From an uncultured Gammaproteobacteria bacterium (GTDB lineage Bacteria; Patescibacteriota; Patescibacteriia; UBA9934): 64,000 nt of DNA. Positions 1,266 through 57,350 of this stretch are shown piece by piece (the stretch's first letter is position 1; every line of letters begins with the position of its first letter). The stretch covers positions 237,113-301,112 of the forward strand of contig CAZKGL010000001.1 of the NCBI GenBank assembly GCA_964552565.1. The letters are read 5' to 3'. The notes under the pieces are model-generated. The model was not told the origin of the DNA. It searched no databases and saw only the letters and a program-made list of their open reading frames with translations. Made by a program: the position numbers and the translations under genes.

Positions 1266-1339
1266 TCCGGGATCGTCTAACGGCAGGACAGCGGCCTTTG
1301 AAGCCGTGAATCTTGGTTCGATTCCAAGTCCCGGAACCA
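1266..1339 (+). tRNA. tRNA-Gln (anticodon TTG), CCA encoded
   Basis: Hand-folded cloverleaf: acceptor TCCGGGA/TCCCGGA, T-arm GGTTCGATTCC, anticodon loop CTTTGAA. Confidence 0.8.
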
Positions 1340-3176: not shown

Positions 3177-4094
3177 ATGCAGATGGCCAAGGTCGTCCTC
3201 ATCCAGGAACCGAACCGCCGCAAGGCCGTGCGCGAGGCCGTGCACCAGCTTGGTGACGCGTGGATCGATAAGGTCAAGTCCAGCCGGCGCATCATCGTCA
3301 AGGTGAACCTCGTGCACCACGAGACGCAGCTCGCGTCGACCCACGTCGATGCGGTGCGCGGGCTCCTCGACGAGATCCGCCAGCACAGCCGCGTCGACGT
3401 ATTCGTCGGCGACGCGTCGTACCACGGGACAAAGGCGGCGTTTGCGAATTTCGGTTACGAGCGTCTCATCGAGGAGTACGAGCACACGATCCTCGTCGAC
3501 CTCAACGACGACGATACCGTGCTCGGCCACAGCGTCCGCGCGGACGGCAGCCTGAACGAGATCCGCCGCTCGAGGCTCGCGAGCGAGTGCGACCTCCGTA
3601 TCTCGTTGACGCCCATGAAGACGCACCGCGACGCCGGCATCTCGCTGTCGGTGAAAAACTGGACGCTCGGCACATGGGTCGTCCCACCGCGCGTCGGGAC
3701 GCACGGAAGGGTGTGGGCGCGCTGGCCATGGTTGCACAACGAGGGCATGAAGGCGTTCCATGAGACGGTGACGACGCTGTATGAGGAGTTGCCGTGCCAC
3801 GTCGGCATCGTAGACGGGACCATTGCGATGGAAGGCGACGGGCCGACGCGCGGCGATGCCGTGCAGATGGGCGTCGTGCTCGCCGGCCTCGACGCGGTCG
3901 CGGTCGACGCGGTGGGGGCCACGCTCATGGGGTTCGATCCCGGGGAGATCGGCTATCTGGTAAAATGTAGCGAACGAGGGCTCGGCGTCGCGGAGATGAG
4001 CCGCATCGATGCCCCGCCGCTCGTCCTGGAGCAGTTGCGCCGTTCGTTTTTGCGCCCGCCGGAGTTGGCGGAGAAATTAACTGCTTGGAAATAA
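3177..4094 (+). CDS. DUF362 domain protein
   Basis: MAKVVLIQ start and the THxxAGISLSVKN and DGTIAMEGDGP motifs are typical of DUF362. Confidence 0.6.
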   Translation: MQMAKVVLIQEPNRRKAVREAVHQLGDAWIDKVKSSRRIIVKVNLVHHETQLASTHVDAVRGLLDEIRQHSRVDVFVGDASYHGTKAAFANFGYERLIEEYEHTILVDLNDDDTVLGHSVRADGSLNEIRRSRLASECDLRISLTPMKTHRDAGISLSVKNWTLGTWVVPPRVGTHGRVWARWPWLHNEGMKAFHETVTTLYEELPCHVGIVDGTIAMEGDGPTRGDAVQMGVVLAGLDAVAVDAVGATLMGFDPGEIGYLVKCSERGLGVAEMSRIDAPPLVLEQLRRSFLRPPELAEKLTAWK

Positions 4095-9762: not shown

Positions 9763-12306
9763 ATGCAAGACCACATCATCGTCAAAGGCGCGCGGGAGCA
9801 CAACCTAAAGAACATCTCCGTGTCCATGCCGCGCAACCAACTCATTTGCATTACCGGGCTTTCCGGTAGCGGGAAGTCGAGTTTGGCGTTCGACACCATT
9901 TTCGCCGAAGGCCAGCGCCGCTACATTGAGTCGCTTTCGGCGTATGCGCGGCAGTTCCTTGGCGCCATGCAAAAACCGGACGTCGACGAGATCGAAGGCC
10001 TGTCGCCCGCGATCTCCATCGACCAGAAGGCGCACAGCCGAAATCCGCGCTCGACGATCGCGACGATCACGGAGATCTACGATTACTTGCGCGTCCTTTT
10101 TGCGCGCATCGGCGAGCCGCACTGCCCGAACTGCAGCACGCGCATCGAAAAGCTCACCGTCGACGAGATGGCGGATATTGTGGTGCGGGAGGCGGGGAAG
10201 CGGGGGGAGAAGAAGGGGAAGAAGTCGAAGCCGGAGGATCGCGAAGTGAGCATCTTGGCCCCGGTCATCCGCGGTCGCAAAGGTGAGTATTATCAATTGC
10301 TGTACGATTTGTATAACAGCGGCTTCGCGAAGGTGCGTATCGACGGCAACATGCACCGCTTGAGCGAAAAGATCAGCCTGTCGCGGTACATGCAGCATAC
10401 GATCGAGGTCGTCGTCGACACGATTCCTGTCGTCGATCTCCGGCAGCCGACGAAGGACACGCGCCAGCGCTTGAGCGAGGCGCTCGAGACCGCCACCGAC
10501 CGCGGCGACGGCGTGGCCGTCATCCTGTACGGCGAACAGGAGGAGCGCACGCTGTCCGCACGGTTCAGCTGCGTGCGGTGCGGGTTCTCGTTTCCCGAAA
10601 TCGAGCCGCGCCTGTTTTCGTTCAACAGCCCGTACGGCGCTTGCCAGGCGTGTTCCGGCCTGGGCACCGTCGACCTGTTTTCGGACGAGGTCTGCCCGAA
10701 GTGCAACGGCATGCGCCTGCGTCCCGAGGCGTTGTACGTGTGGATCGGCGAGCGCAACATCGTCGACGTCACTTCGATGTCGGTCGACGCTGCAGTTGCG
10801 TTTTTCCTTACCCTCGACCTCCAGGAACGGCAGCGCGAGATCGCGAGCACGGTATTGAAGGAGATCGAGGCGCGCTTGAGCTTTCTTTTGGACGTCGGCC
10901 TGCACTACCTGACGCTGAATCGCACTGCGGGCACGCTGTCGGGCGGCGAGGCGCAGCGCATCCGCCTCGCGTCGCAGATCGGCTCGCGGCTCACCGGCGC
11001 GCTCTACGTGCTCGACGAGCCGACCATCGGCTTGCACCAGCGCGACAACGAACGGCTCATCAAGACGCTCGAAGACTTGCGCGACCTCGGCAACACCGTG
11101 CTCGTCGTCGAACACGACGAAGACACGATCCGTCGTTCGGACTACATGGTGGAAATCGGTCCGGGGGCGGGCGTGCACGGCGGCCATGTTGTCGCGGCCG
11201 GCCCGGTGCCGGAGATTTTCAAGGACAAGAAGTCGCGGACGGCGGCGTATCTCCGTGGCGACGCGACGATTCCCGTTCCCGACACACGCCGCACAAAAGA
11301 ATCGGGCGCCATCAAAGTGCGCGGCGCGACCGAAAACAACTTGAAGAACGTCGACATCGACTTCCCGTTGCGGCGTTTCGTGTGCGTGACCGGCGTGTCG
11401 GGCAGCGGCAAGTCGTCGCTGGCGTATGACGTCATGTACAAAGCGGTCGCGAAGAAGTTGTACGGCGGCAAGGACAATCCGGGCAGCCACAAGGCGATCC
11501 TCGGCATCGAGTACATCGACAAGGCGATCCTCATCGACCAGTCCGCGATCGGCCGTACGCCGCGCAGCAACCCGGCGACCTACACCGGCGCGTGGGGCCC
11601 CGTTCGCGACCTGTTTGCGATGACCGAAGAGGCGCGCTTCCGCGGCTACAAGCCGGGGCGCTTCAGCTTCAACGTGCCGGGCGGGCGCTGCGACCATTGC
11701 GAAGGGCACGGCGTCATCGAGATCGAGATGCACTTCCTGCCGACGGTGTACGTGACGTGCGAGGTCTGCAAAGGCAAGCGCTTCAACCGCGAGACGCTCG
11801 AGGTGACATACAAGGAGAAGAACATCGCGCAAGTGCTCGAGATGACTATTGAAGAAGCGGCAACGTTCTTCGTCGACATCCCCGAAATCCACGACAAACT
11901 GAAGGCGCTGAACGACGTCGGCTTGAGCTATGTCACCCTCGGCCAGAGCGCGACGACGCTCTCCGGCGGCGAGGCGCAGCGCGTGAAGCTCGCGGCCGAA
12001 CTCAGCAAGCGCCAGACCGGCAAGACGCTGTATCTGCTTGACGAGCCGACGACCGGGCTCCATTTCGACGACGTCAAAAAGCTCCTTGAGGTGCTCCATT
12101 CGCTCGTCGACAAGGGCAACACGATCGTCGTCATCGAACATAACCTCGACGTCATCAAGACCGCGGACTACATTATCGACATGGGCCCCGAGGGCGGCGA
12201 CCAGGGCGGCACCGTCGTCGCGACCGGCACGCCGGAAGAAATTGCGCGCCGCGCGGACAGCCACACGGCGAAATACCTGCGGCCGATGCTGAAGAACAAA
12301 CGTTAG
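9763..12306 (+). CDS. uvrA: Excinuclease ABC subunit A
   Basis: [20 protein letters not shown], two ABC ATPase modules, zinc fingers CPNCSTRI and CEVCKGKRF. Confidence 0.95.
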
Positions 12307-13444: not shown

Positions 13445-13597
13445 ATGACCCAGAAGGACAAGCTCGTGCCCACGGTGTGCCGTGGCCCCGAAGCGATTCG
13501 TGCGACGCCGCAGCCGCCGCCGAAGGGGTGCGAGCCGAAGGGATGTACGCGCGTGGGGTGCGGCCTCCGACGAGGCGTGAAGCGCGACGTCATGTAG
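13445..13597 (+). CDS. Small Cys-rich peptide (50 aa), pattern C-x16-C-x4-C-x4-C
   Basis: Strong RBS AAGGAGG 5 nt upstream. High GC3. Sequence MTQKDKLVPTVCRGPEAIRATPQPPPKGCEPKGCTRVGCGLRRGVKRDVM. It lies in a long open frame (12587..13597), so it could be spurious. Confidence 0.35.
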   Translation: MTQKDKLVPTVCRGPEAIRATPQPPPKGCEPKGCTRVGCGLRRGVKRDVM

Positions 13598-22593: not shown

Positions 22594-24714
22594 ATGAAAG
22601 AGTTCGTGCTCAGCGGTGCCGGGTTCGGCAGCCGGAAGATCGACTACGCCGCGGAGCTGAACGACGAGCAGCGCGAACCGGTCGTGCACGGTGACGGCGC
22701 GACCCTGGTGCTCGCCGGCGCGGGAAGCGGCAAGACGCGCGTCATCACGTACCGCGTCGCATGGCTCCTCGAGCAGGGCGTGCCGCCGGAGCGCATCCTG
22801 CTCCTCACGTTTACCAACAAGGCGGCGCGCGAAATGGTGAGCCGCGTCGAAGCGCTGCTTGGCGTCTATCCGCACGGGCTGTGGGCCGGCACATTTCACT
22901 CCATCGCCAACCGCATCTTGCGCATGTACGGCAGCCGCGAGGGCTTTGCGCCGAACTTTTCTATCCTCGACGAAGAGGACGCGGGCGACCTCATCAAGTT
23001 GTGCACGAAGCACCTGAAGATCGACACCGCGGGCAAGCGCTTCCCGAGTCCGAACGTGCTGAAGGGCGTCATCTCGTACCGCCGCAACGCCGCCATGTCG
23101 ATGGAAGACGTGCTCAGCCGCAAGCATCCGCACCTCTTGCCGATGCTCGCGGACATCGAACGCGTCGCGGACATGTACGAACGCCAAAAGGCGGAGCAGC
23201 AGGCGATGGACTTCGACGACTTGCTGACGGTGCTCTTGCGCCTGCTCCGCAACCATCCGGACGTGCGCGAAAAACTCGCGGACCAGTTTGCGTACATCCT
23301 CGTCGACGAGTTCCAGGACACGAACGTCATCCAGGCGGACATCGTCCACGCGCTGGCCGGGACGCACGGCAATATCCTCGCGGTCGGCGACGACGCGCAG
23401 AGCATCTACTCGTTCCGCGCCGCGGAGATCCGCAACATCCTCGACTTCCCGCGCCGCTACCCGGACGCGAAGGTGTTCCGTTTGGTGACGAATTACCGCT
23501 CAACGCCGCAGATCCTCGCTATCGCGAACAGCGTCATCGCGCACAACGAAAATCAGTTTGCAAAAGAACTCGTCGCCGCGGTGCACGACGGGGAGAGGCC
23601 GCAGCTCGTCCCTGCGAACTCCGCGTCGCAAGAGGCGCAGTTCGTCGTGGAACAGATCTGTGCGCTGCTTGACGAGGGCGCGGCGCCATCGTCCGTCGCC
23701 GTGCTGTTCCGCGCGGCATTCCACTCGCAACAAGTGGAATTCGAACTCATGAAGCGCGGTATTCCGTACGAGTACCGCGGCGGCATGAAGTTTTTCGAAC
23801 GCGCCCATGTCAAAGACGCGTTGGCGCATCTGCGCACCATCCATAACGTCAAAGACCTCATGGCGTGGAACCGCGCGCTGACGCTCCAGCCCGGACTCGG
23901 CCTCACGACCGCAAACAAGATCGCGACGACGCTCGCGCAGGCGGCGACGATCGACGAGGCGGTCGCATCGACGCCGGTGACGGCGCCCAAAGCACGGGCC
24001 GGATGGGAGGGGACGCAGCGTATGCTCCGCGCCATGCTCGCGGCACGGCCGTCGGTCGCCGACGTGCTCCGTGCGTTCGCCGCAAGCGACGACTACCGCG
24101 CGTATCTCGAAGGGGAATACCCGAACTGGCGCGAGCGCCTCGATGACGTCGAACAGCTCGCCGTGTTTGCGGAGCAGTACCAGGAACTCGGCGGGTTCCT
24201 CGACGCGGTGAGCTTGACCGCGGAATTCGGGGCGCGCATCGACGACCCGGCGCAACCTGAGGATGAAGCGGAAGGCGACGCGCTCGTGCTTTCAACGATC
24301 CACCAGGCCAAGGGGCTCGAGTGGGACACCGTCTTCATCATCAACCTTTCGGAGGGCGGGTTCCCGAGCGGACGCGCGCTCGACGAAGAGGGTGGGCTTG
24401 AAGAAGAGCGTCGGCTGTTCTATGTTGCCGCCACGCGCGCGCGGAAAAAACTCTTCCTCACATACCCCATCACTGCGGGCTACGAGCACGTGGAGCTCCG
24501 CCAGCCGTCGACGTTCCTCACGGAGATTCCCAAGCACGAGCTCGAAGAAGTGCGCTTGCGGTACGGCGGATCATGGCAAGCGACACAAGAACATCGCCGG
24601 GGTCCCCGCACCCCGGCATGGGACGACGAACCGACGATCGTGCTCGACGACGACGGCGAGCGCGTCACGAAGCCTGCGCCGAAATCATTCTTGCGTGATC
24701 TCGATGACCTGTAG
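22594..24714 (+). CDS. uvrD: ATP-dependent DNA helicase UvrD/PcrA family
   Basis: Walker A LAGAGSGKT, helicase motifs I-VI, 706 aa. A REP-like palindrome is embedded in-frame near the C-terminus (24596-24617). Confidence 0.9.
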   Translation: MKEFVLSGAGFGSRKIDYAAELNDEQREPVVHGDGATLVLAGAGSGKTRVITYRVAWLLEQGVPPERILLLTFTNKAAREMVSRVEALLGVYPHGLWAGTFHSIANRILRMYGSREGFAPNFSILDEEDAGDLIKLCTKHLKIDTAGKRFPSPNVLKGVISYRRNAAMSMEDVLSRKHPHLLPMLADIERVADMYERQKAEQQAMDFDDLLTVLLRLLRNHPDVREKLADQFAYILVDEFQDTNVIQADIVHALAGTHGNILAVGDDAQSIYSFRAAEIRNILDFPRRYPDAKVFRLVTNYRSTPQILAIANSVIAHNENQFAKELVAAVHDGERPQLVPANSASQEAQFVVEQICALLDEGAAPSSVAVLFRAAFHSQQVEFELMKRGIPYEYRGGMKFFERAHVKDALAHLRTIHNVKDLMAWNRALTLQPGLGLTTANKIATTLAQAATIDEAVASTPVTAPKARAGWEGTQRMLRAMLAARPSVADVLRAFAASDDYRAYLEGEYPNWRERLDDVEQLAVFAEQYQELGGFLDAVSLTAEFGARIDDPAQPEDEAEGDALVLSTIHQAKGLEWDTVFIINLSEGGFPSGRALDEEGGLEEERRLFYVAATRARKKLFLTYPITAGYEHVELRQPSTFLTEIPKHELEEVRLRYGGSWQATQEHRRGPRTPAWDDEPTIVLDDDGERVTKPAPKSFLRDLDDL

Positions 24715-28041: not shown

Positions 28042-28113
28042 CTAACGTTGAAAAACGAGCAGGGCATTCGGAATAGAGGTATCATATGTCCAAGTAATAA
28101 ATGCCTTATTCCT

Positions 28114-31100
28114 ATGCTCGCACGTTTGTTGACGTTTCGGCAGGCCCGTCCTTTGGCCTACCTCCTCGCCATTCTTGGCGCAGGTATCGTGTTTCTCCTC
28201 ACCGCGCAAAGCGCGTTTGCGGCGAACACTATCAGCACGAGTAAGTACGAAGAGTCGGGTACCGCGGACGGTACGCTCGACCGCATCCGCTTCGCGATGG
28301 ACGAGAACGTCACGGCGTGCACGTACGAGTCGGGCGACTGGAGTATCGACGCAGCGGGTACCGTTGGCCTGACCGCGATCACCGCGGTCTCCTGCACGAC
28401 GCTCGACGTGAACCTCGACATCACCGCGACATTTACCGCGAACATCACGGGCGGCGCAGTGAACCCGCAGATTGACTATAACAACCAGGGTCAGCCAAAC
28501 AGCATCTACCTCACGAGCGGCGCGATGACGAACAAGTTGAACCAGGCGATCACGGACGGCGCCAAGCCGCAAGCGAACGCGTTCACCTATGCCGACAACG
28601 ACGGCGACGGGAAGATTGACCGCGTGACCATCACCTGGTCGGAAGAAGTAGCGGCAGGATCTGTCATTGCGAAAAACGACCTCACCTTCCAGAACGTCGG
28701 TGACTTCACGGGCATTGCATTCGGTACGGATAACACCGACCTCATCACCGGCTCGACGTCAACAACACTCCTCGACCTCACGGCAGGTGCCGGCGCCGCA
28801 GAAGCGACTGCGCTGGACACGGCCGATTCCGGCAGTATCCGTATCGACTCGCAGAACGCCTGGTCCATTACTGACGGTACGAACGCGAACACCACGCTCG
28901 GTTCGCAGTCGGCGATTGCGACATATACTGACGGTGCCAAACCGGTCATCTCGACATTCGACTATTCGGACGCGGACGATGACGGCAAGGTCGATACCAT
29001 CACCGTCAACTACACGGAAACGGTTACGGCCGCATCGGTGCTCGCGGCAAACGACCTTACGCTCTCCGCGGTCGGCGACTTTACCTCGCTCGCATTCGGC
29101 GCCAACTCCACGGACCTTATTACGGGTTCGGTGACCTCTACCGCAATTACGCTCGGCACCGAGTCGACGGTAAAGGATACCGAAGACAACGCCGGCACGC
29201 TCGCCATCACGTCGCAAAATCTCTTCTCGCTGACGGACGGTACCAACACGAACGCCGACCTCGAGGCGCAGGCGCAGGCGACTGCGGTGGACGAGGCGAA
29301 GCCGGTCATCACCGCCTTCGACTACCAGGACGCGGACGATGACGGCAAGATCGACACGATCGTTACGAACTTCTCTGAAGAAGTCGTCGCGGGTAGTGTG
29401 TTGCGTCCGGCAGACTTGACGTTCTCGGCGGTCGGCGACTTTACGGCCGCGGCATTCGGCGCGAACACGACCGATGCGATCACCGGTACGGTCACCTCCG
29501 CGACGCTGACGCTCGGTACGGAATCCACGGCGAAGGACACTGCGGAAGGCGCCGGAACCATCGCCATTACCGCGCAAAACAACTTCTCCCTTGTCGACAC
29601 CGCGACGGCCGCGAACACGAACAACACCCTCGATGCACAGAGTTCGAGCGCGACGTTCGTGGACGAAGCCGCTCCGCAAATTGCGACGGTTACTTACTCT
29701 GATGCGGACGGCGATGCCAAAGTCGACACGCTAACCCTCGCCTACACCGAAACCGTGACTGCCGCGAGCGTCCTTGGCCAAAACGACCTCACGCTCTCCG
29801 CAGTCGGCGACTTCACGGCGCTCGCGTTCAGCAACTCGGCGACGGACCTTATTACCGGTTCGGTCTCGAGCACGGCGATCACCATGGGTACCGAATCGTC
29901 CGCGCAGGATACGGGTGACGATAGCCCGGCGCTCGCGATGACGAGCCAGAACCTCTTCTCCCTTACGGACGGCACGAACGCGAACGCCGAACTCGAGGCG
30001 CAGATGTCGAGCAGCGCGACGGTCGCCGACGGCGCACGTCCGATGCTCCTCACCACGTCGCCGGTAAACGGCGCCACGGGCGTCTCGGCCACGGCGAACA
30101 CGGTGCTCACGTTCTCCGAACCGATCAGCACCGGCTCGTTCACCTGGACCTCGACCGGCGGCCCTGCAATGGCAGACTTCGCGGCGGCGTGGACGGTTGG
30201 CGACACGGTCGTTACGCTGAACCCGCCGGGCAACATGGGCGGCGGCCTCCATACGGTCGACGTCACCGCAGCGCCGGACACTGGGAGTAACACGTATAAC
30301 GGCGCGGTCGCAGCGATCGCCGATCCATTCACTTTCACGGTGTCGACAAGCGGCACCACGAGCACGGGCACCTCGAGCACGGTTGGTGGCTCGGCAAACT
30401 ACTCGGTCCTCGTCGAGGCGCCGAACGGCGGCGAGACGCTGACTCCGGGCGAGAGCTACGACATCCGCTGGTCGACCGACGGCGGTTCGACAATGAGCGC
30501 GATGAACATTGCATACTCGACGAACAACGGCGACAGCTACACGGCGATCGTCTCTGACACGGCAAACGACGGCAGCTACACCTGGACCGTGCCGGACATC
30601 GATTCCGACCAGGTCTTCATCCGCATCCAGGGCACCGACCTTGCGACCGTCCTCGCGTACGACCGCTCGGACAGCGAGTTCACCATCGGTACCGTCGCGG
30701 CATCCGATGACGAGGATACGACGGACGAAGATGAGGACACGTCGAGCGACGACTCGGATACGGCGGAAACGTCGGATGATGTCACGGTCCCGTCGAGCGG
30801 TGAAACCGGCGCGTCGCCGGTGACCGGCGAGACGGAAGAGATCTCCGCGGTCGAGGCCGGCATGTACGTGCGCAGCGTGTACTTCGACACCGTCTACTAC
30901 CTGGAAGGCCAGGATGACGGTTCGATCGTCCGCCGCCCGTTCATGGACTCCCAGACCTACTTCACCTACTTCGACAGCTGGGATGAAGTGGAGACGGTGA
31001 CCGACGCCACGCTTCCGACCTTGACCCTCGGCGCCCCGATGCTTCCGCAGGCCGGCGTGGTCCTGGTCAAGATCCAGAGCGTCGCCAAGGTCTACGCCAT

Positions 31101-31293
31101 CGAAGGCGACGGCGAGCTCCGCTGGGTCACCAGCGAGTCGGTCGCCGAGGAGATCTACGGCGAAGACTGGGCCGACTACGTCATCGACATCCCGGACACG
31201 CTCTGGCCGCGGTTCGACCAGGGTGATGACATCGACTCGGATGAAGGCTTTGACACGAGCAACATGAAGACCCGCATGGAGGTGAACTCCTAG
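28114..31293 (+). CDS. Giant secreted surface protein with four tandem ~122-aa repeats, an Ig-like region, a Kre9/KNH-like beta-sandwich, an acidic linker and a conserved C-terminal domain
   Basis: Signal peptide MLARLL...SAFA. Repeats begin AFTYADNDGDGKIDRVTITWSEEV, AKPVISTFDYSDADDDGKVDTITVNYTETV, AKPVITAFDYQDADDDGKIDTIVTNFSEEV and AAPQIATVTYSDADGDAKVDTLTLAYTETV. The C-terminal module is shared with the 31389 gene. Confidence 0.8.
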   Translation: MLARLLTFRQARPLAYLLAILGAGIVFLLTAQSAFAANTISTSKYEESGTADGTLDRIRFAMDENVTACTYESGDWSIDAAGTVGLTAITAVSCTTLDVNLDITATFTANITGGAVNPQIDYNNQGQPNSIYLTSGAMTNKLNQAITDGAKPQANAFTYADNDGDGKIDRVTITWSEEVAAGSVIAKNDLTFQNVGDFTGIAFGTDNTDLITGSTSTTLLDLTAGAGAAEATALDTADSGSIRIDSQNAWSITDGTNANTTLGSQSAIATYTDGAKPVISTFDYSDADDDGKVDTITVNYTETVTAASVLAANDLTLSAVGDFTSLAFGANSTDLITGSVTSTAITLGTESTVKDTEDNAGTLAITSQNLFSLTDGTNTNADLEAQAQATAVDEAKPVITAFDYQDADDDGKIDTIVTNFSEEVVAGSVLRPADLTFSAVGDFTAAAFGANTTDAITGTVTSATLTLGTESTAKDTAEGAGTIAITAQNNFSLVDTATAANTNNTLDAQSSSATFVDEAAPQIATVTYSDADGDAKVDTLTLAYTETVTAASVLGQNDLTLSAVGDFTALAFSNSATDLITGSVSSTAITMGTESSAQDTGDDSPALAMTSQNLFSLTDGTNANAELEAQMSSSATVADGARPMLLTTSPVNGATGVSATANTVLTFSEPISTGSFTWTSTGGPAMADFAAAWTVGDTVVTLNPPGNMGGGLHTVDVTAAPDTGSNTYNGAVAAIADPFTFTVSTSGTTSTGTSSTVGGSANYSVLVEAPNGGETLTPGESYDIRWSTDGGSTMSAMNIAYSTNNGDSYTAIVSDTANDGSYTWTVPDIDSDQVFIRIQGTDLATVLAYDRSDSEFTIGTVAASDDEDTTDEDEDTSSDDSDTAETSDDVTVPSSGETGASPVTGETEEISAVEAGMYVRSVYFDTVYYLEGQDDGSIVRRPFMDSQTYFTYFDSWDEVETVTDATLPTLTLGAPMLPQAGVVLVKIQSVAKVYAIEGDGELRWVTSESVAEEIYGEDWADYVIDIPDTLWPRFDQGDDIDSDEGFDTSNMKTRMEVNS
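28560..30040 (+). repeat. Intragenic tandem repeats (4 copies, period about 366-375 bp) in the surface protein gene
   Basis: Visible periodicity of DxDxDGKxD-containing units at the protein level. Confidence 0.7.
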
Positions 31294-31388
31294 CGGCCAC
31301 AACCAAGAGACGGGGGACGCGTCCCCCGTCTCTTGTGTTTTTGATCGCGTTCAGGTAAAAAATCACCGTCATTTTTCTTTCTCACCTT

Positions 31389-40337: not shown

Positions 40338-43300
40338 ATGTCAGAAATCACAGCGCGCGTCGCCCCCCAGGCGGCGTCGGAAGGTCAGATTGCAGGTGCG
40401 GTTTGGCAGTTTATGACCTCGGTCAAAGAAGTGAAAAAACGCGACGGAGCAAGCCAGGCGTTTTCCGCTGACAAGCTTCGTGCGTCCGTCGAGAAGGCGC
40501 TCGCCGCAGCCGGGCAGAACAATGCCGACGCCTATGCCGGCCGCATCACGTCGCAGGTCGTGTCCCGCCTGACGCGCCAGTTTGACGGACACCGCGTTCC
40601 GACCACGTCGGAGATCCGCGAAGTCGTGTCCGTTGCCATCATCGACAACAACCTGATCCACGTCGCGAAGGCGTACATGGGGTTCAAGGCGCGGACGGAG
40701 GCTGCGGTGCCGGGCGAGAAGTACGGCAAGGGCCTTCCGTTCAGCCGCTACTTTACGAAGGACGGCGTGGCGCCGTACGCCATGCTCGAGTGGGAGAAGC
40801 GCAGCGCGGTCATCACGAACGAGAAGGGCAAGGTCGTGTTCGAACAGCACGACATCGAGGTTCCGAAGGGGTGGTCGCAGACCGCCACGAACATCGTCGC
40901 CCAGAAGTATTTCCGCGGGAAGGTCGGCACGCCGGAGCGCGAGACGTCCATGAAGCAGCTCATCGACCGCGTGGCCAAGACCATGGCGAACTGGGGCCGC
41001 AAGGACGGTTATTTCGCGACGAAAGAGGATGCGCAGGTTTTTGAAGATGAACTGACGTGGATTCTCATTAACCAGATGGCCGCGTTCAACAGCCCGGTCT
41101 GGTTCAATGTGGGCATTAATCCGCACCCGCAGTGTTCCGCGTGCTTCATCAACTCCGTGCAGGACGACATGCGTTCGATTTTGAACCTCGCGGTCACGGA
41201 AAGCATGCTCTTCAAGCAGGGCTCGGGCACGGGCAGCAACCTCTCCAAGCTCCGCTCGTCGCAGGAATACCTCGGCGGCAGCAACGGCAAGTCGTCCGGC
41301 CCCGTATCGTTCATGAAGGGCCTCGATGCCTTCGCGGGCATCGTCAAGAGCGGCGGCAAGACGCGCCGCGCGGCGAAGATGGTCATCTTGAACGTCGACC
41401 ATCCCGATGTCATGCAGTTCATCGAGTGCAAGGCGAAGGAGGAGCGGAAGGCCTGGACGCTGGTCGACGCCGGCTACGACAGCAGCATGGACGGCGAGGC
41501 GTACTCGAGTATTTTCTTCCAGAACGCGAACAACTCGGTGCGCGTGACGGATGGCTTCATGCGTGCGGTGGAGAAGGACGAGGAGTGGGTGACGAAGGAG
41601 ATTACGACCGGTAAGGATTCGCTGAAGTACAAGGCGCGCGACCTTTTCCGCGCCATGGCCGAGGCGGCGTGGCAGTGCGGCGACCCGGGCATCCAGTACG
41701 ACACGACCGTGAACCTCTGGCACACGAGCAAGAATACGGACCGCATCAACGCGTCGAACCCGTGCTCGGAATACATGTTCCTCGACGACACCGCCTGCAA
41801 CCTTTCGTCGCTCAACCTCATGAAGTTCCGCAAGGAAGCAAACGGCGTCATGGAGTTCGACGTGGAGGCGTTCACGAAGGCGTCGGAGGTCATGATTACC
41901 GCGATGGAGATCACGGTCGGCAACTCGAGCTACCCGACGCCGGCCATCGAGCAGAACAGCCACGACTTCCGCCCGCTCGGTATCGGCTACGCGAACTTGG
42001 GCGCGCTCCTCATGAGCCGGGGCCTTGCATACGACTCGGACGAGGGACGCAACCTCGCCGCCGCGATTACCGCGCTCCTTTCGGGCGCGACCTATGCGCA
42101 GTCGGCGCGCATCGCCGAGAAGATCGGCGCGTTCTCGGCCTTTGCCGTGAACCGCGAGCCGTGCATGGGCGTCATGGAGATGCACCGCCGCGCGTCCTAC
42201 GAGATGGCGCCCGCGGGCGTCCCGGCAGACCTCATGGCGGCGGCGAAGAAGAGCTGGGACGAGGTCGTCGACCGCGGCTACCAGCACGGGCTGCGTAACG
42301 CGCAGATTTCGGTCATCGCCCCGACCGGCACCATTTCGTTCCTCATGGATTGCGACACGACCGGCATCGAGCCGGACATCGCGCTCGTGAAGTACAAGTG
42401 GCTTGTGGGCGGCGGCATGCTGAAAATCGTGAACAATACCGTCCCGGAGGCGCTGACCCGCCTTGGCTACGGCGAGGCGGAGTGCAAGGATATCCTCGCC
42501 TACATCGACGAGAAGGACACCATTGAAGGCGCCCCGCACCTGAAGCCGGAGCACGTCGGCGTGTTTGACTGCGCGTTCAAGGCGAAGAACGGGACGCGCA
42601 CCATCCACCACATGGCGCACATCAACATGATGGCCGCGGTGCAGCCGTTCGTGTCCGGGGCCATCTCGAAGACGGTCAACATGCCGAACGAGGCGACGGT
42701 CGAAGATATCATGGACGTCTACATGAAGGGCTGGAAGCTCGGCTTGAAGGCGATCGCCATCTACCGCGACGGCAGCAAGCGCCAACAGGCACTTACCACG
42801 TCGAAAGAAAAAGACTCTGCGAAGGCGAATGCGAAAGAACTAGGCGGGGCCACCGCGCCCCGCCCGGAAGAGAAGAAGGATGAAACGGTCGCCGCGGCGA
42901 TCGAAACCGTAAAGGTGCAGGTGAACCCCGCAACCGCGTCGCGCCGCCGCCGCTTGCCGGACGAGCGCCGCGCCCTCACGCACAAGTTTGCGATCGGCAG
43001 CCACGAGGGCTATATCACCATCGGCCTCTACGACGACGGGACGCCGGGCGAGCTCTTCGTCACCATGTCGAAGGAAGGTTCGGTCATCAGCGGCCTCATG
43101 GATGCGTTCTCGACCAGCGTGTCGATTGGCCTGCAATACGGCGTGCCGCTCCACGTGCTCGTGAACAAGTTCGCGCACATGCGCTTTGAGCCGTCGGGCT
43201 TCACGAACAATCCCAACATCCGCATCGCGAAGTCCATCATCGACTACATCTTCCGCTACCTCGCCATGAAGTTCCTCCCGGTCGATGCACAGCTCCAGGT

Positions 43301-43601
43301 CGGCATCAACGTCGTCGAGACGCATGGCAATGACATAGGCGGGGTCACCGCGCCCCGCCAGGAAACGGTCGTGCAGCCGATCACCGACGCACAGCCGACG
43401 ATCTTCGCCTCACCGCTCGCGACCGACACGAACCCCGTCATGTCGCCGGGCACTGCGCCCGCGAAGACGACGCCCGGCCTCACGGCGACGTTCGACAACC
43501 AGTCGGACGCCCCGACGTGCGACACGTGCGGCAGCATGATGGTCCGCAACGCCGCGTGCTACAAGTGCCTGAATTGTGGGAGTACGAGTGGATGCAGTTA
43601 A
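40338..43601 (+). CDS. nrdJ: Ribonucleotide reductase class II (adenosylcobalamin-dependent), with N-terminal ATP cone and C-terminal zinc ribbon
   Basis: ATP cone, NPCSEY active-site motif, C-terminal CDTCGSMMVRNAACYKCLNC. Two REP-variant palindromes are embedded in-frame (42843-42864 and 43338-43359). Confidence 0.9.
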   Translation: MSEITARVAPQAASEGQIAGAVWQFMTSVKEVKKRDGASQAFSADKLRASVEKALAAAGQNNADAYAGRITSQVVSRLTRQFDGHRVPTTSEIREVVSVAIIDNNLIHVAKAYMGFKARTEAAVPGEKYGKGLPFSRYFTKDGVAPYAMLEWEKRSAVITNEKGKVVFEQHDIEVPKGWSQTATNIVAQKYFRGKVGTPERETSMKQLIDRVAKTMANWGRKDGYFATKEDAQVFEDELTWILINQMAAFNSPVWFNVGINPHPQCSACFINSVQDDMRSILNLAVTESMLFKQGSGTGSNLSKLRSSQEYLGGSNGKSSGPVSFMKGLDAFAGIVKSGGKTRRAAKMVILNVDHPDVMQFIECKAKEERKAWTLVDAGYDSSMDGEAYSSIFFQNANNSVRVTDGFMRAVEKDEEWVTKEITTGKDSLKYKARDLFRAMAEAAWQCGDPGIQYDTTVNLWHTSKNTDRINASNPCSEYMFLDDTACNLSSLNLMKFRKEANGVMEFDVEAFTKASEVMITAMEITVGNSSYPTPAIEQNSHDFRPLGIGYANLGALLMSRGLAYDSDEGRNLAAAITALLSGATYAQSARIAEKIGAFSAFAVNREPCMGVMEMHRRASYEMAPAGVPADLMAAAKKSWDEVVDRGYQHGLRNAQISVIAPTGTISFLMDCDTTGIEPDIALVKYKWLVGGGMLKIVNNTVPEALTRLGYGEAECKDILAYIDEKDTIEGAPHLKPEHVGVFDCAFKAKNGTRTIHHMAHINMMAAVQPFVSGAISKTVNMPNEATVEDIMDVYMKGWKLGLKAIAIYRDGSKRQQALTTSKEKDSAKANAKELGGATAPRPEEKKDETVAAAIETVKVQVNPATASRRRRLPDERRALTHKFAIGSHEGYITIGLYDDGTPGELFVTMSKEGSVISGLMDAFSTSVSIGLQYGVPLHVLVNKFAHMRFEPSGFTNNPNIRIAKSIIDYIFRYLAMKFLPVDAQLQVGINVVETHGNDIGGVTAPRQETVVQPITDAQPTIFASPLATDTNPVMSPGTAPAKTTPGLTATFDNQSDAPTCDTCGSMMVRNAACYKCLNCGSTSGCS

Positions 43602-43610
43602 ACGAGAGAG

Positions 43611-43640
43611 CATAGACGGGGTCCCCGCACCCCGTCTATG
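43611..43640 (+). repeat. REP palindrome, copy 1 (catagacggggtccccgcaccccgtctatg)
   Basis: Perfect 10-bp stem ATAGACGGGG/CCCCGTCTAT with loop TCCCCGCA. Confidence 0.8.
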
Positions 43641-43650
43641 ATTTTCCTGT

Positions 43651-44049
43651 ATGCGCCAAATCACCAAGCGTCTCCTACCAGGACAGGATCTTCGCGATGA
43701 AATCGAGAAGGTCGTCCATGACCATGATGTGAAAGCAGGAGTTCTGCTTTCCATCGTCGGATGTCTTACGTCCTTACGGCTTCGCGTCGCTGACGGGGTG
43801 ACGGTCAAGGAATGGAGCGAGAAGTTTGAAATCGTATCCGGCACCGGGACGGTATCGGTCAACGATAGCCACATCCATATCGCGGCCGCAAACCAGGAGG
43901 GCATGACGATTGGCGGGCATCTTAAACAGGGCTGCATCGTGGGAACGACGGTAGAGCTCGTGGTTCTTGCGTTCGATGACATTGCATATGTTCGCGAACC
44001 GGATGCTGCGACCGGATACGATGAGCTCGTTATCCGCGAAAAACCATAG
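43651..44049 (+). CDS. PPC/DUF296 domain protein (PD1-like DNA-binding)
   Basis: DUF296 fold pattern (IHIAAANQEGMTIGGHL...GTTVELVVLAFDD). The stop codon lies inside REP copy 2. Confidence 0.55.
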   Translation: MRQITKRLLPGQDLRDEIEKVVHDHDVKAGVLLSIVGCLTSLRLRVADGVTVKEWSEKFEIVSGTGTVSVNDSHIHIAAANQEGMTIGGHLKQGCIVGTTVELVVLAFDDIAYVREPDAATGYDELVIREKP

Positions 44050-44075
44050 ACGGGGGTCCCCGCACCCCGTCTATG
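44045..44075 (+). repeat. REP palindrome, copy 2
   Basis: catagacgggggtccccgcaccccgtctatg. Confidence 0.8.
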
Positions 44076-44082
44076 CTGTTCT

Positions 44083-44553
44083 ATGCGAACCTTTCGATGG
44101 CACGACGAACTGAAAAACGATAACGCGATTCATTTTGTTACTTCGGTGACGAAGGGGCGTACGCGGACTTTTGATGACGTGGCGCTCGCACTGTTACTGC
44201 TCGGAGAGATTCACGGATATGCGGAGAGATACTCGATGACGTTGTTTGCGTCGGTGGTCATGCCCGACCACTTCCATGCAATCCTTTGGCCGCAAGGGAA
44301 ACGGACTGTTCCGGAGTTTATGAAAGGGGTGAAGGGTTTTACCGCAAAGAAGGTCGCCGAGTATAGGCGGGGTGCGGGGACCCCGCCTATGGACGTGTGG
44401 CAAGACGAGTATTTTGATCACCTGATTACAGATGAGACTACGCTTGAAGAAAAGATTTGGTACATCATCCGCAATCCGATTGAGGACAACCTCATTGCCG
44501 AAGGCGGCGAGTACCCGTACCTTTTCGTCCAGCCCGATTACGATCCTCGCTAA
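44083..44553 (+). CDS. REP-associated tyrosine transposase (RAYT; IS200/IS605-like Y1 HUH transposase)
   Basis: HUH motif PDHFHAIL and C-terminal WQDEYFDHLI matching the RAYT WQxxY(F/W)DH motif. It contains an in-frame inverted REP copy (44363-44392) and is flanked by REPs. Confidence 0.75.
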   Translation: MRTFRWHDELKNDNAIHFVTSVTKGRTRTFDDVALALLLLGEIHGYAERYSMTLFASVVMPDHFHAILWPQGKRTVPEFMKGVKGFTAKKVAEYRRGAGTPPMDVWQDEYFDHLITDETTLEEKIWYIIRNPIEDNLIAEGGEYPYLFVQPDYDPR

Positions 44554-44579
44554 AGGCGGGGTGCGGGACCCCGCCTATG
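44552..44579 (-). repeat. REP palindrome, copy 4 (inverted), spanning the RAYT stop and the ATG of the next gene
   Basis: aaaggcggggtgcgggaccccgcctATGa. Confidence 0.7.
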
Positions 44580-45176
44580 AAAAAGAACGAACAGCCGGTT
44601 CTCGACGAACGCATCAAAGGCTTCCAAGGTTACGGCTTGGTGCAGCTCATCCATGGCACGGGGAAGGGGAAGACGACCGCTGCGCTCGGGCAGGCTATCC
44701 GGTGCGTGGGTTCCGGCCGGCGCGTCTGCATCGTCTACTTCGACAAAGGCGGAACGACGCACTACAGCGAACGGAAGGTGCTCGATGCGCTGGATGGCAT
44801 CGACTATGTCGCGTCCGGTCGTGACCGCATCGACCCGGTGACGGGACGATTTGATTTTTCGATCACCGACGAGGACAAGGCCGAGGCGGCGCGGGGGCTT
44901 GCTGCGGCGCGCGATGCATTGGCGGGCGACCACGAGGGTCGCCCCTACGATCTCGTTATTCTCGATGAGATCAATTCCACCGTCGCGCTCGGCATGCTTG
45001 GCGAGCAGGATGTGCTCGATGTGCTCGCGAAGAAGCGTCCGGACGTCGAAGTCATCCTCACGGGACGCAATCCGCCCCAGGCGTTCATCGACGCCGCACA
45101 TCTTGTCACCGAAATGACACTGCAGCGTCACTACTTCTATTCCGGCGTGAAGGCGCGGGAGGGGCTTGACTACTAG
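44577..45176 (+). CDS. Cob(I)yrinic acid a,c-diamide / cob(I)alamin adenosyltransferase (CobA/CobO/BtuR type)
   Basis: P-loop HGTGKGKTTAALG, conserved DE and TGR motifs. About 200 aa, typical of this family. Confidence 0.8.
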   Translation: MKKNEQPVLDERIKGFQGYGLVQLIHGTGKGKTTAALGQAIRCVGSGRRVCIVYFDKGGTTHYSERKVLDALDGIDYVASGRDRIDPVTGRFDFSITDEDKAEAARGLAAARDALAGDHEGRPYDLVILDEINSTVALGMLGEQDVLDVLAKKRPDVEVILTGRNPPQAFIDAAHLVTEMTLQRHYFYSGVKAREGLDY

Positions 45177-51103: not shown

Positions 51104-51178
51104 TGGTGACCCTACGGGGATTCGAACCCCGATTTGATCCGTGAGAGGGATCCGTCCTAGCCCTTAGACGATAGGGCC
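51104..51178 (-). tRNA. tRNA-Glu (anticodon CTC), CCA encoded
   Basis: Hand-folded: acceptor GGCCCTA/TAGGGTC (one G-U pair), T-arm CGGGGTTCGAATCCCCG, anticodon stem GATCC/GGATC with loop CTCTCAC. Confidence 0.7.
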
Positions 51179-56852: not shown

Positions 56853-57350
56853 ATGACGGATGAACAGCACAACACAATAGACGGGGTCCCCGCACCCCGT
56901 CCGAGCGATGACCTCCAAGCGAAGTGCGACGAGTATCTCGCCGGATGGAAACGCGCGCTGGCCGACTACGAAAACTTGCAAAAGCATAACGCACAGGAAC
57001 GCGAGAACGACCGACGCCGCATCCGCACGAACCTCGCGCTCGACCTCCTGCCCGTCGTCGACAACTTCGACCAGGCGCTCAAGTTCGCTCCGAAGGACGT
57101 CGATGCGAACTGGTTCGCCGGCGTCGCGCACATCGCGCGGCAGTTCGCGGAGGCGCTCAAGAACATGGGCATCGAACCCATCGAGTCCGTCGGCCATGTC
57201 TTTGACCCGAACCTCCACGAGAGCGGCGGGTCGCGCTGGGAGGACGACACGCCGGAGGGCGTGGTCATCGAAGAAGTCATCCGCGGATGGAAGATGGGCG
57301 ATATGGTCATCCGTCCTGCAAAAGTCATCGTGAACCAAAAATCCGAATAA
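56853..57350 (+). CDS. grpE: Nucleotide exchange factor GrpE
   Basis: GrpE coiled coil and C-terminal beta domain. A REP palindrome (56887-56913) is embedded in-frame near the N-terminus ([12 protein letters not shown]). Confidence 0.9.

Follow-up and report, generated by a model that had tools for sequence, protein, structure and literature searches.

In-frame REP hairpins in nrdJ, uvrD, grpE and a RAYT-like transposase gene of a candidate phyla radiation bacterium

We describe here a family of small GC-rich hairpins in a 64-kb stretch of DNA (the window; positions 237,113 to 301,112 of contig CAZKGL010000001.1, assembly GCA_964552565.1), which comes from a small genome (~839 kb, ~10% non-coding) of the candidate phyla radiation (CPR)/Patescibacteria. 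The hairpins are repetitive extragenic palindromes (REPs), and the gene of a putative REP-associated tyrosine transposase (RAYT) lies among them. A hairpin scan and a fuzzy search of the window defined eight members of one family, against ~0.1 expected by chance, with the core G[ACG]CGGGG-N8-CCCCG[GCT]C and mostly with an ATAG tag (Table 1). In five of the eight the reading frame of a gene runs on through the hairpin (twice in nrdJ, once each in uvrD, grpE and the RAYT gene); the remaining three stand in non-coding DNA or where a coding sequence begins or ends, around the RAYT gene and the adjoining PCC-domain gene.

Gene identities were taken from Pfam and homolog searches, in which Pfam confirmed a class II ribonucleotide reductase with ATP-cone and TSCPD domains (NrdJ), GrpE, UvrD and Y1_Tnp. 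A gene caller based on GC3 (GC content at third codon positions) was rejected for this purpose, as it mis-called grpE/dnaK, the PCC gene and the RAYT gene among others; the coding fraction of ~0.87 that it gives for the window is accordingly rough. Database entries 100% identical to NrdJ, GrpE and UvrD exist, of which the UvrD entry (MBI1908541.1) is annotated as Candidatus Uhrbacteria bacterium, and the NrdJ orthologs, at 66-100% identity, are from Candidatus Uhrbacteria wherever the source gives a name. Relatives are cited below by our own handles, with P or L numbers.

Table 1. REP copies and the genes that carry or adjoin them, in window coordinates.
Feature	Position	Strand	Details
uvrD open reading frame (ORF)	22594-24714	+	Pfam UvrD
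REP, uvrD C-terminal linker	24596-24617	+	GCCGGGGTCCCCGCACCCCGGC, read HRRGPRTPAW
nrdJ, class II B12-dependent ribonucleotide reductase	40338-43601	+	1087 aa; ATP-cone, barrel, TSCPD, C-terminal Cys4 tail (Pfam)
REP, nrdJ site 1	42843-42864	+	(CTAG)GCGGGGCCACCGCGCCCCGCC, translated LGGATAPRP; linker between barrel and TSCPD
REP, nrdJ site 2	43338-43359	+	(ATAG)GCGGGGTCACCGCGCCCCGCC(AGGAAACG), translated IGGVTAPRQET; linker from TSCPD to C-terminal zinc-finger-like tail
Intergenic canonical REP	43611-43640	+	CATAGACGGGGTCCCCGCACCCCGTCTATG; 10 nt past the nrdJ stop; 12-bp stem; DNA fold -12.8 kcal/mol, z = -7.4
PCC-domain gene	43651-44049		Between nrdJ and RAYT
REP upstream of RAYT	44046-44077	+	ATAGACGGGGGTCCCCGCACCCCGTCTAT; its ATAG tag gives the TAG stop of the PCC-domain gene
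RAYT-like Y1 (HUH) transposase gene	44083-44553	+	156 aa; HUH = H63-F-H65; catalytic Tyr Y127
REP within the RAYT ORF	44363-44392	+	Opposite orientation; TATAGGCGGGGTGCGGGGACCCCGCCTATGG, read YRRGAGTPPM; loop between helix 76-96 and strand 111-115
REP between RAYT stop codon (44551-44553) and cobO	44555-44578	+	GGCGGGGTGCGGGACCCCGCCTAT; CTAT tag overlaps the cobO start ATG 44577-44579
grpE ORF	56853-57350	+	Pfam GrpE
REP, grpE N-terminal tail	56877-56901	+	ATAGACGGGGTCCCCGCACCCCGTC, translated IDGVPAPR

The hairpin family in the window

All eight copies fold, as DNA, into GC-rich hairpins with stems of 7-12 bp, loops of 5-9 nt and energies of -8.5 to -12.8 kcal/mol. The intergenic copies, when extended to ATAG...CTAT, reach 12-bp stems and -12 to -13 kcal/mol; the genic copies have shorter stems of 7-8 bp (-8.5 to -11 kcal/mol). 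The principal variant in the window is GACGGGGTCCCCGCACCCCGTC, and a variant in the opposite orientation, GGCGGGGTGCGGGGACCCCGCC, carries compensatory stem changes. A 5' tag, ATAG or CTAG, precedes six of the eight copies, differing in its first base from the GTAG of published REPs, whose degenerate forms alter other positions. Its complement CTAT follows four of the eight, including the copy downstream of the RAYT gene, which has AAAG at its 5' side, and the uvrD copy is without a tag. Six of the copies are no more than 1.7 kb from the RAYT gene; the other two stand apart, at 24.6 and 56.9 kb.

A preliminary description, made from the letters of this DNA, had taken the palindromes for members of one REP family, and the comparisons agree with it. 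The grpE copy is identical to the intergenic REPs over 25 nt (25/25 nt with 43612-43636), the uvrD copy has the identical 8-nt loop with a compensatory stem change, and the variant in nrdJ is that of a REP adjoining the RAYT gene in L076, one of four relatives (with L029, L074 and L082) among the matches listed from one pattern scan of genome contigs. The match is between nrdJ site 2 and the REP past the RAYT stop codon of L076, and covers 22/22 nt. The same variant also occupies nrdJ site 1 in L076 and lies 1-2 nt from the grpE copies of L199 and L201; it is therefore clade-wide and not a private oddity, and is probably an older REP variant. With five of eight copies inside ORFs of Pfam-confirmed identity, the family is for the most part not extragenic in the window, which does not exclude it from the REPs because published exceptions exist.

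The positions given in the preliminary description were right for all but one of the genic copies. The 22-mer GGCGGGGYCACCGCGCCCCGCC that it reported twice in nrdJ is exact at both positions and in the same codon phase, read ELGGATAPRPEE and DIGGVTAPRQET, and the GCCGGGG variant near the UvrD C-terminus and the inverted copy in the RAYT ORF lie where it had put them, with the sequences of Table 1. For grpE the peptide was correct and the coordinates were not, the start being ~10 nt off (56887-56913 instead of 56877-56901).

With up to three mismatches allowed, GGCGGGGYCACCGCGCCCCGCC is matched three times in the window where 0.05 matches are expected, and 0 of 100 shuffles reached three; the looser pattern GGCGGGG-N8-CCCCGCC finds the same three sites against 0.09 expected, and no further copies rose above shuffle noise at up to five mismatches across the window. 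No inverted pair of REPs within 100 nt, of the type known as REPINs, was found in the window, and at the repeats an Rfam scan of the window matched no known RNA family. We also considered whether the repeats might be CRISPR repeats or intrinsic terminators and dropped both identities, as spacing and context do not fit.

One further hairpin in the window was excluded from the family. At 31302-31345, directly after a 1081-aa ORF (28048-31293), a perfect 10-bp GC-rich hairpin, GAGACGGGGGACGCGTCCCCCGTCTC, is followed by a T-run; the hairpin proper (31309-31330) has five mismatches to the REPs and resembles an intrinsic terminator. The sole Rfam matches in the window are two tRNA genes, at 1266-1336 (+) and 51107-51178 (-).

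The sites in orthologous genes

Both nrdJ copies lie in hypervariable linkers of the C-terminal region, which differ in length and sequence among 40 orthologs. Within this set and L076, the site 1 peptide is confined to the window/P0001 and P0002/L076. At site 2, GGVTAPR is common to the window, P0002, P0003 and L076, and P0004/L117 has a decayed remnant (CTTGGTGGCGCGAGTATTGTGACC); both sites are empty in P0005-P0040. Linkers with a REP are longer than empty ones by 6-8 codons. An AlphaFold2 (AF2) model of NrdJ gives a predicted local distance difference test (pLDDT) score below 50 for residues 812-870 and 993-1087, the spans that hold both sites, which we treat as merely supportive because the model is mediocre (mean pLDDT 66), with some core segments also below 50. 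P0001 is a 100%-identical partial NrdJ on a 12.5-kb contig of an independent assembly from the same organism; that contig breaks at residue 939, between both REP copies, and the break may be repeat-induced.

In grpE, the start of the protein, MTDE, is kept in homologs with and without a REP, and because it is conserved irrespective of the REP we predict that the element is translated. At the level of protein, I[DG]G[AVG][TP][AIT][PL][RQ] stands at the same position of the N-terminal tail in 9 of 50 aligned homologs, including the window's own entry (P0121). Its distribution is patchy: it appears in ~6 clades of a neighbour-joining tree, and the sister sequence P0122 is without it. The variant at the site also differs between genomes. 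In L198 (GCA_040960375.1) the grpE site reads ATAGGCGGGGGTCCCATCCCCCGCC, with a loop unlike the window's; the identical sequence recurs in intergenic DNA of L198 itself, at a distance of 4.7 kb. The nearly identical grpE tail of L199 has GGTGGGGCCACCGCGCCCCGCC in the same 27 nt. The same site thus carries different variants in different genomes, each matching the genome's own intergenic REP, which argues for turnover or homogenisation and not for single clean insertions.

The grpE-dnaK-dnaJ region of L198 also holds three copies of another small hairpin, ATCCCCGC(C/A)T(A/G)CGCGGGGAT, at 10526-10545, 10963-10982 and 13530-13549. A GIY-YIG gene inserted between grpE and dnaK has one of them on either side, and the third is found downstream of dnaK. 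The hairpin may be a second repeat family or an element associated with a homing endonuclease.

The C-terminal linker of UvrD is hypervariable as well, ranging from few to more than 30 residues in 40 orthologs. A further genic REP was seen in L074, at 3322-3347, within the glutaminase domain of glmS, where it is read TAGCGDPAYDG.

In the NrdJ, GrpE, UvrD and RAYT alignments, every genic copy falls in a hypervariable, indel-rich linker, tail or loop. The preliminary description had named conserved, ancestral residues in ortholog alignments as the outcome that would speak against it; instead the REP-encoded residues are missing from most orthologs, and because their presence is patchy among relatives of 70-87% identity they do not represent ancestral sequence under conservation. 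No REP hairpin occurs in the 20 kb of DNA from L116 and L200, the closest relatives sampled, both of which come from one sample.

The RAYT locus and its internal REPs

The RAYT product matches Pfam Y1_Tnp (PF01797) at 37.6 bits, against a cut-off of 23. H63, H65, Y127, N131 and P132 are invariant in its alignments, and its AF2 model has a pLDDT of 93.5. In a search of the PDB the best agreement was with TnpA of the ISDra2/IS608 type (IS200/IS605; E ~4e-4 to 7e-4), and TnpA_REP (4ER8) was matched weakly (E = 0.018) over a longer stretch. There is one RAYT copy within the 64-kb window and no TnpB-like neighbour. The REPs at 44046-44077 and 44555-44578 flank the gene in opposite orientation, and these inverted flanks make the arrangement a REPtron. 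The same arrangement is also found in L076 and L206, and in L202 the upstream REPs are present before the contig ends.

The order nrdJ-REP-RAYT is common to the four loci for which we have DNA (the window, L076, L202 and L206), and this synteny is consistent with vertical inheritance of the locus. In the window, the PCC and RAYT genes form an island (43602-44580) of 54% GC between nrdJ and cobO, against 62% around it, and REPs both bound and subdivide it. On the P0003 contig and in L205, nrdJ is followed directly by cobO without the island, and L202 and L206 have only the RAYT gene at the position downstream of nrdJ. The REPs may mark a hot spot of recombination or insertion between nrdJ and cobO.

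The REP inside the RAYT ORF lies in a surface loop of the AF2 model. In a family search against 1.84 billion representative proteins, the helix that ends near residue 96 leads to the conserved WQ..[FY][FY]D strand without an insert in the wider RAYT family. Exactly at that loop, the most closely related subfamily (P0362-P0364, P0366-P0369 and L076) has one to three units R-G-x-x-(T/A)-P-P-(I/M), which are the translation of CGGGG-loop-CCCCGCCTAT, and REP-derived loop units are also present in the RAYTs of L202, L203 and L206. The loop is occupied in ~8 of the 10 closest relatives; that of P0365 is without a REP. L202 and L206 have two internal REPs each, inverted and REPIN-like, with spacers of 66 and 44 nt, and the L203 contig, at 38% GC, keeps a GC-rich internal REP. 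As a side observation, the C-terminal tail of the P0365 homolog contains a tandem duplication, PDYVPPKAGSGDPAYK x2, which resembles a pair of REP units, translated in a third phase, at the gene's 3' end.

The loops of the internal REPs vary between the four loci with DNA, and the internal copies have 1-3 mismatches to the REPs flanking their own locus, compared with 2-5 to those of other loci. In a distance matrix over 22 nt, L206 and L076 show this co-variation clearly, the window and L202 modestly, and because of this difference we grade it as suggestive. As a control, an interior repeat shared with the flanks was present in 2 of 80 distant RAYT loci (at most 38% identity) among the matches listed from a metagenome scan with the RAYT alignment. 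As a more speculative reading, possible though not probable, we propose that RAYTs of the Uhrbacteria clade bear a cognate REP, or an inverted pair, in a conserved surface loop, that this copy changes in step with the flanking REPs, and that the grpE and nrdJ REPs likewise match each genome's current variant. If so, REP turnover or homogenisation would be active within the coding sequence of an ultra-small genome, and the internal copy might be a self-recognition or autoregulatory site, or might mark a cis-preferential action of the transposase.

Origin of the genic copies, known systems and distribution

We consider it likely that the genic palindromes are true members of the REP family of their own genome, which became fixed in coding sequence and persist there as tolerated passengers, being gained, lost or overwritten, and that they are tied to the RAYT. 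Family membership, the reading frames, the location in variable regions, the patchy distribution and the match of copies to each genome's own REPs are direct observations. As to how such copies might arise, REPs served by the adjacent Y1 transposase would spread as single-strand hairpins, by analogy with IS200/IS605 TnpA and with the biochemistry of TnpA_REP (Messing 2012, PMC3479197; Corneloup 2021, PMC8266576), and the clustering of six of eight copies in or near the RAYT gene suggests that it acts preferentially close by. With so little non-coding DNA available, a copy in a gene would survive only where the frame is kept, the TAG of the tag is avoided by phase, and the site is a disordered linker, a tail or a surface loop; it would then be read as a peptide of 8-11 residues, rich in Gly, Pro, Arg, Ala and Thr, that the protein tolerates. 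Mobilisation by the RAYT, neutrality and the mechanism of homogenisation are the parts that we infer. The genic copies would most likely be near-neutral passengers and not functional modules, and they do not seem to be fossils but to remain part of the REP population, in which copies may come and go, decay, or be overwritten by the variant current in the genome. Several sites hold different REP variants in many lineages, which argues for turnover rather than one-off insertions, and the comparison of orthologs indicates that, at a limited number of permissive sites, REP sequence has apparently been acquired, lost, degraded and exchanged.

Several observations sit poorly with this account. The preliminary description had proposed insertion into tolerant linkers with the gain of short peptides; the segments are indeed tolerant and lineage-specific, but the gain in length is seen in nrdJ only. 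A GrpE tail with a REP nets just ~3 aa extra, the UvrD of L116 (87% identical) has unrelated DNA of exactly the same length at the REP position, and the GlmS loop of L074 equals in length that of its REP-free L205 ortholog. Such equal or near-equal lengths are, on the sequences compared, contrary to a simple insertion of 22-30 nt. Codon alignment of filled and empty orthologs gave no clean pair at base level, the linkers being too diverged to define insertion boundaries or a target site. The nrdJ copies are 2-5 nt away from the REP variants of the window, and that the same sites in GrpE and the RAYT are filled again and again, in many lineages, could reflect selection for a function or else a strong hot spot. 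The distribution was seen in 64 kb of ~839 kb, and RAYT activity and translation of the peptides are predicted from sequence.

The equal-length cases, together with the same-site swaps of variants, give real weight to the possibility that REPs overwrite rather than insert, being copied over existing GC-rich linker DNA at the same length through short-patch gene conversion, template switching or a RAYT-mediated exchange of REPs. We regard this as possible though not probable; in one version, an old degenerate copy could be refreshed to the genome's current variant. UvrD and GlmS, equally long with and without a REP, would fit, as would the near-identical L198 and L199 tails with different variants in exactly the same 27 nt, that of L198 being its own intergenic REP. 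So would the resemblance of RAYT-internal copies to their own flanking REPs, and 37 nt at 97% identity, including non-palindromic flanks, between nrdJ site 2 of the window and nrdJ site 1 of L076. The REP-bearing nrdJ linkers, however, are those 6-8 codons longer than empty ones, linker length is so variable that equality may be coincidence, and no conversion tract has been demonstrated. The hairpins might instead be kept for a function of the nucleic acid, such as pausing of ribosomes or RNA polymerase at domain boundaries, protection of mRNA, or autoregulation of the RAYT through its internal copy. All genic copies do lie at domain boundaries or tails, the same site is filled in several lineages with the palindrome kept while the loop changes, the internal REP of L203 persists at 38% GC, and the RAYT loop is filled in most of the closest relatives. 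We nevertheless think such a function unlikely, since close relatives (P0122, P0005, P0006 and P0365) do without the hairpins, the genic stems are shorter and weaker than the intergenic ones, and decay is visible in L117; Di Nocera et al. moreover argue that insertion in unrelated proteins speaks against functional constraint (PMC3733652).

It is very improbable that the selected unit is the peptide, a conserved Gly/Pro/Arg motif (GGxTAPR or RRGxxTPP) with the DNA palindrome as by-product. The phase I-G-G-x-x-x-P-R does recur, twice in nrdJ and in GrpE of many relatives, but three different phases are used across genes, the host proteins are unrelated, intergenic copies have identical DNA, and the absence of the motif from most orthologs effectively refutes the idea in the alignments. 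To chance palindromes in a genome of 63% GC, or to an assembly artefact, we give practically no credence: the genome is GC-rich, and a degenerate pattern matches many unrelated actinobacterial genomes by chance, but the observed count was beyond every shuffle, stretches of 22-25 nt with the tag included are the same from copy to copy, and the same peptides recur in independent assemblies and samples (P0001, P0002, P0003, L076, L198, L199 and L201).

REPs in genes have precedents. REPs tagged with GTAG or CGTC lie wholly within ORFs in several species (Di Nocera, De Gregorio and Rocco, 2013; BMC Genomics 14:522; PMC3733652). In that survey many of the host genes serve DNA synthesis or repair, UvrD/REP helicase being named, some genes have two copies, intragenic GTAG copies are most numerous in Opitutus terrae, and the GTAG tag supplies TAG stop codons to adjoining ORFs. 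Our window repeats these features: short, tagged, GC-rich hairpins in ORFs of known proteins, double hits, UvrD, a stop-supplying tag and a RAYT REPtron. It differs in the tag (ATAG, and CTAG once, instead of GTAG), in the host (Candidatus Uhrbacteria, ~0.84 Mb, from a group outside the survey), in the units, which are mostly single and of 8-11 aa where the published ones are dimers of 20-30 aa, and in having REPs in the interior of the RAYT gene where the survey has overlaps at RAYT gene ends only. Established RAYT-REP/REPIN systems (Nunvar 2010, PMC2817692; Bertels & Rainey 2011, PMC3116915; Messing 2012; Corneloup 2021) likewise have a Y1 HUH transposase gene, single as it is within our window, between inverted cognate hairpins and a dispersed hairpin family. 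In contrast to them, the copies in our window are few and mostly genic, its intergenic DNA has no inverted doublets, the transposase is weakly similar to E. coli TnpA_REP (E = 0.018), and a surface loop in the RAYT ORFs of this clade contains one to three cognate REPs. The RAYT papers searched by text do not mention RAYT-interior REPs under the terms used, and the literature searched held no paper pairing RAYTs or REPINs with the CPR.

Rickettsia palindromic elements (RPEs) are described, as cited in the 2013 survey, as in-frame palindromic repeats in protein-coding genes (Ogata et al., 2000). The likeness to our REPs lies in in-frame palindromes in functional, often essential genes of a small reduced genome, tolerated at surfaces or linkers as 'selfish DNA in protein-coding genes'. 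RPE-1 elements are ~100-150 bp long, encode 30-50 aa, are unrelated in sequence to these REPs and are not known to have an associated RAYT. The units described here, with 22-30 nt, 8-11 aa and a cognate Y1 transposase adjoining, fall outside the RPE size range, and the likeness is one of behaviour and not of family.

The phenomenon of intragenic REPs is thus already known, and the novelty here is mainly the lineage, a CPR bacterium; the freshest point is the RAYT-internal REPs with their suggestive co-variation, and the apparent turnover of variants at the same site is also of note. REP/RAYT systems and 'selfish DNA inside protein-coding genes' are thereby extended to the CPR, with its minimal genomes and scarce intergenic space, and the window offers a concrete case of mobile hairpins giving short disordered peptide segments to essential proteins. 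The series of orthologous sites (GrpE tail variants, NrdJ sites that are filled, empty or decayed, RAYT loops with one to three REPs) could serve to study how fast and by what mechanism REPs turn over, a process that is poorly understood. For annotation there is a warning, in that Gly/Pro/Arg-rich segments and contig breaks in such genes may be repeat-derived.

The pattern scan also touched other lineages. Hits of the degenerate REP pattern were rejected as family members where they were chance matches, mostly in GC-rich genomes such as those of actinobacteria among the matches listed. Also among them, a GTAG-tagged (occasionally GCAG or GTAA) REP, GGCGGGGTCACCGCACCCCGCC, occurs in Opitutales and other Verrucomicrobia, in Hebobacteria and in the unclassified metagenome-assembled genome (MAG) DeMMO6_30 (records L005, L008, L012, L022, L025, L032, L042, L066, L079, L080, L097, L107 and L112). 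It is one base from the nrdJ-type REP of Uhrbacteria, a likeness that hints at a broadly shared REP type and could stem from a shared ancestral type, from horizontal transfer of a RAYT/REP pair or from convergence. The records of L076, L029, L074 and L082 (CAYHFQ01, CAZPQJ01 and CAYRYG01) are titled 'uncultured Gammaproteobacteria bacterium', and all four carry the same REP family as the window. L076, L029 and L074 are homologous to this Uhrbacteria window, L076 and L029 being collinear with it and the nrdJ of L076 having 72.6% nucleotide identity, and L082, from the same MAG as L074, has only the REP in common with it; the Gammaproteobacteria labels of these four records look wrong.

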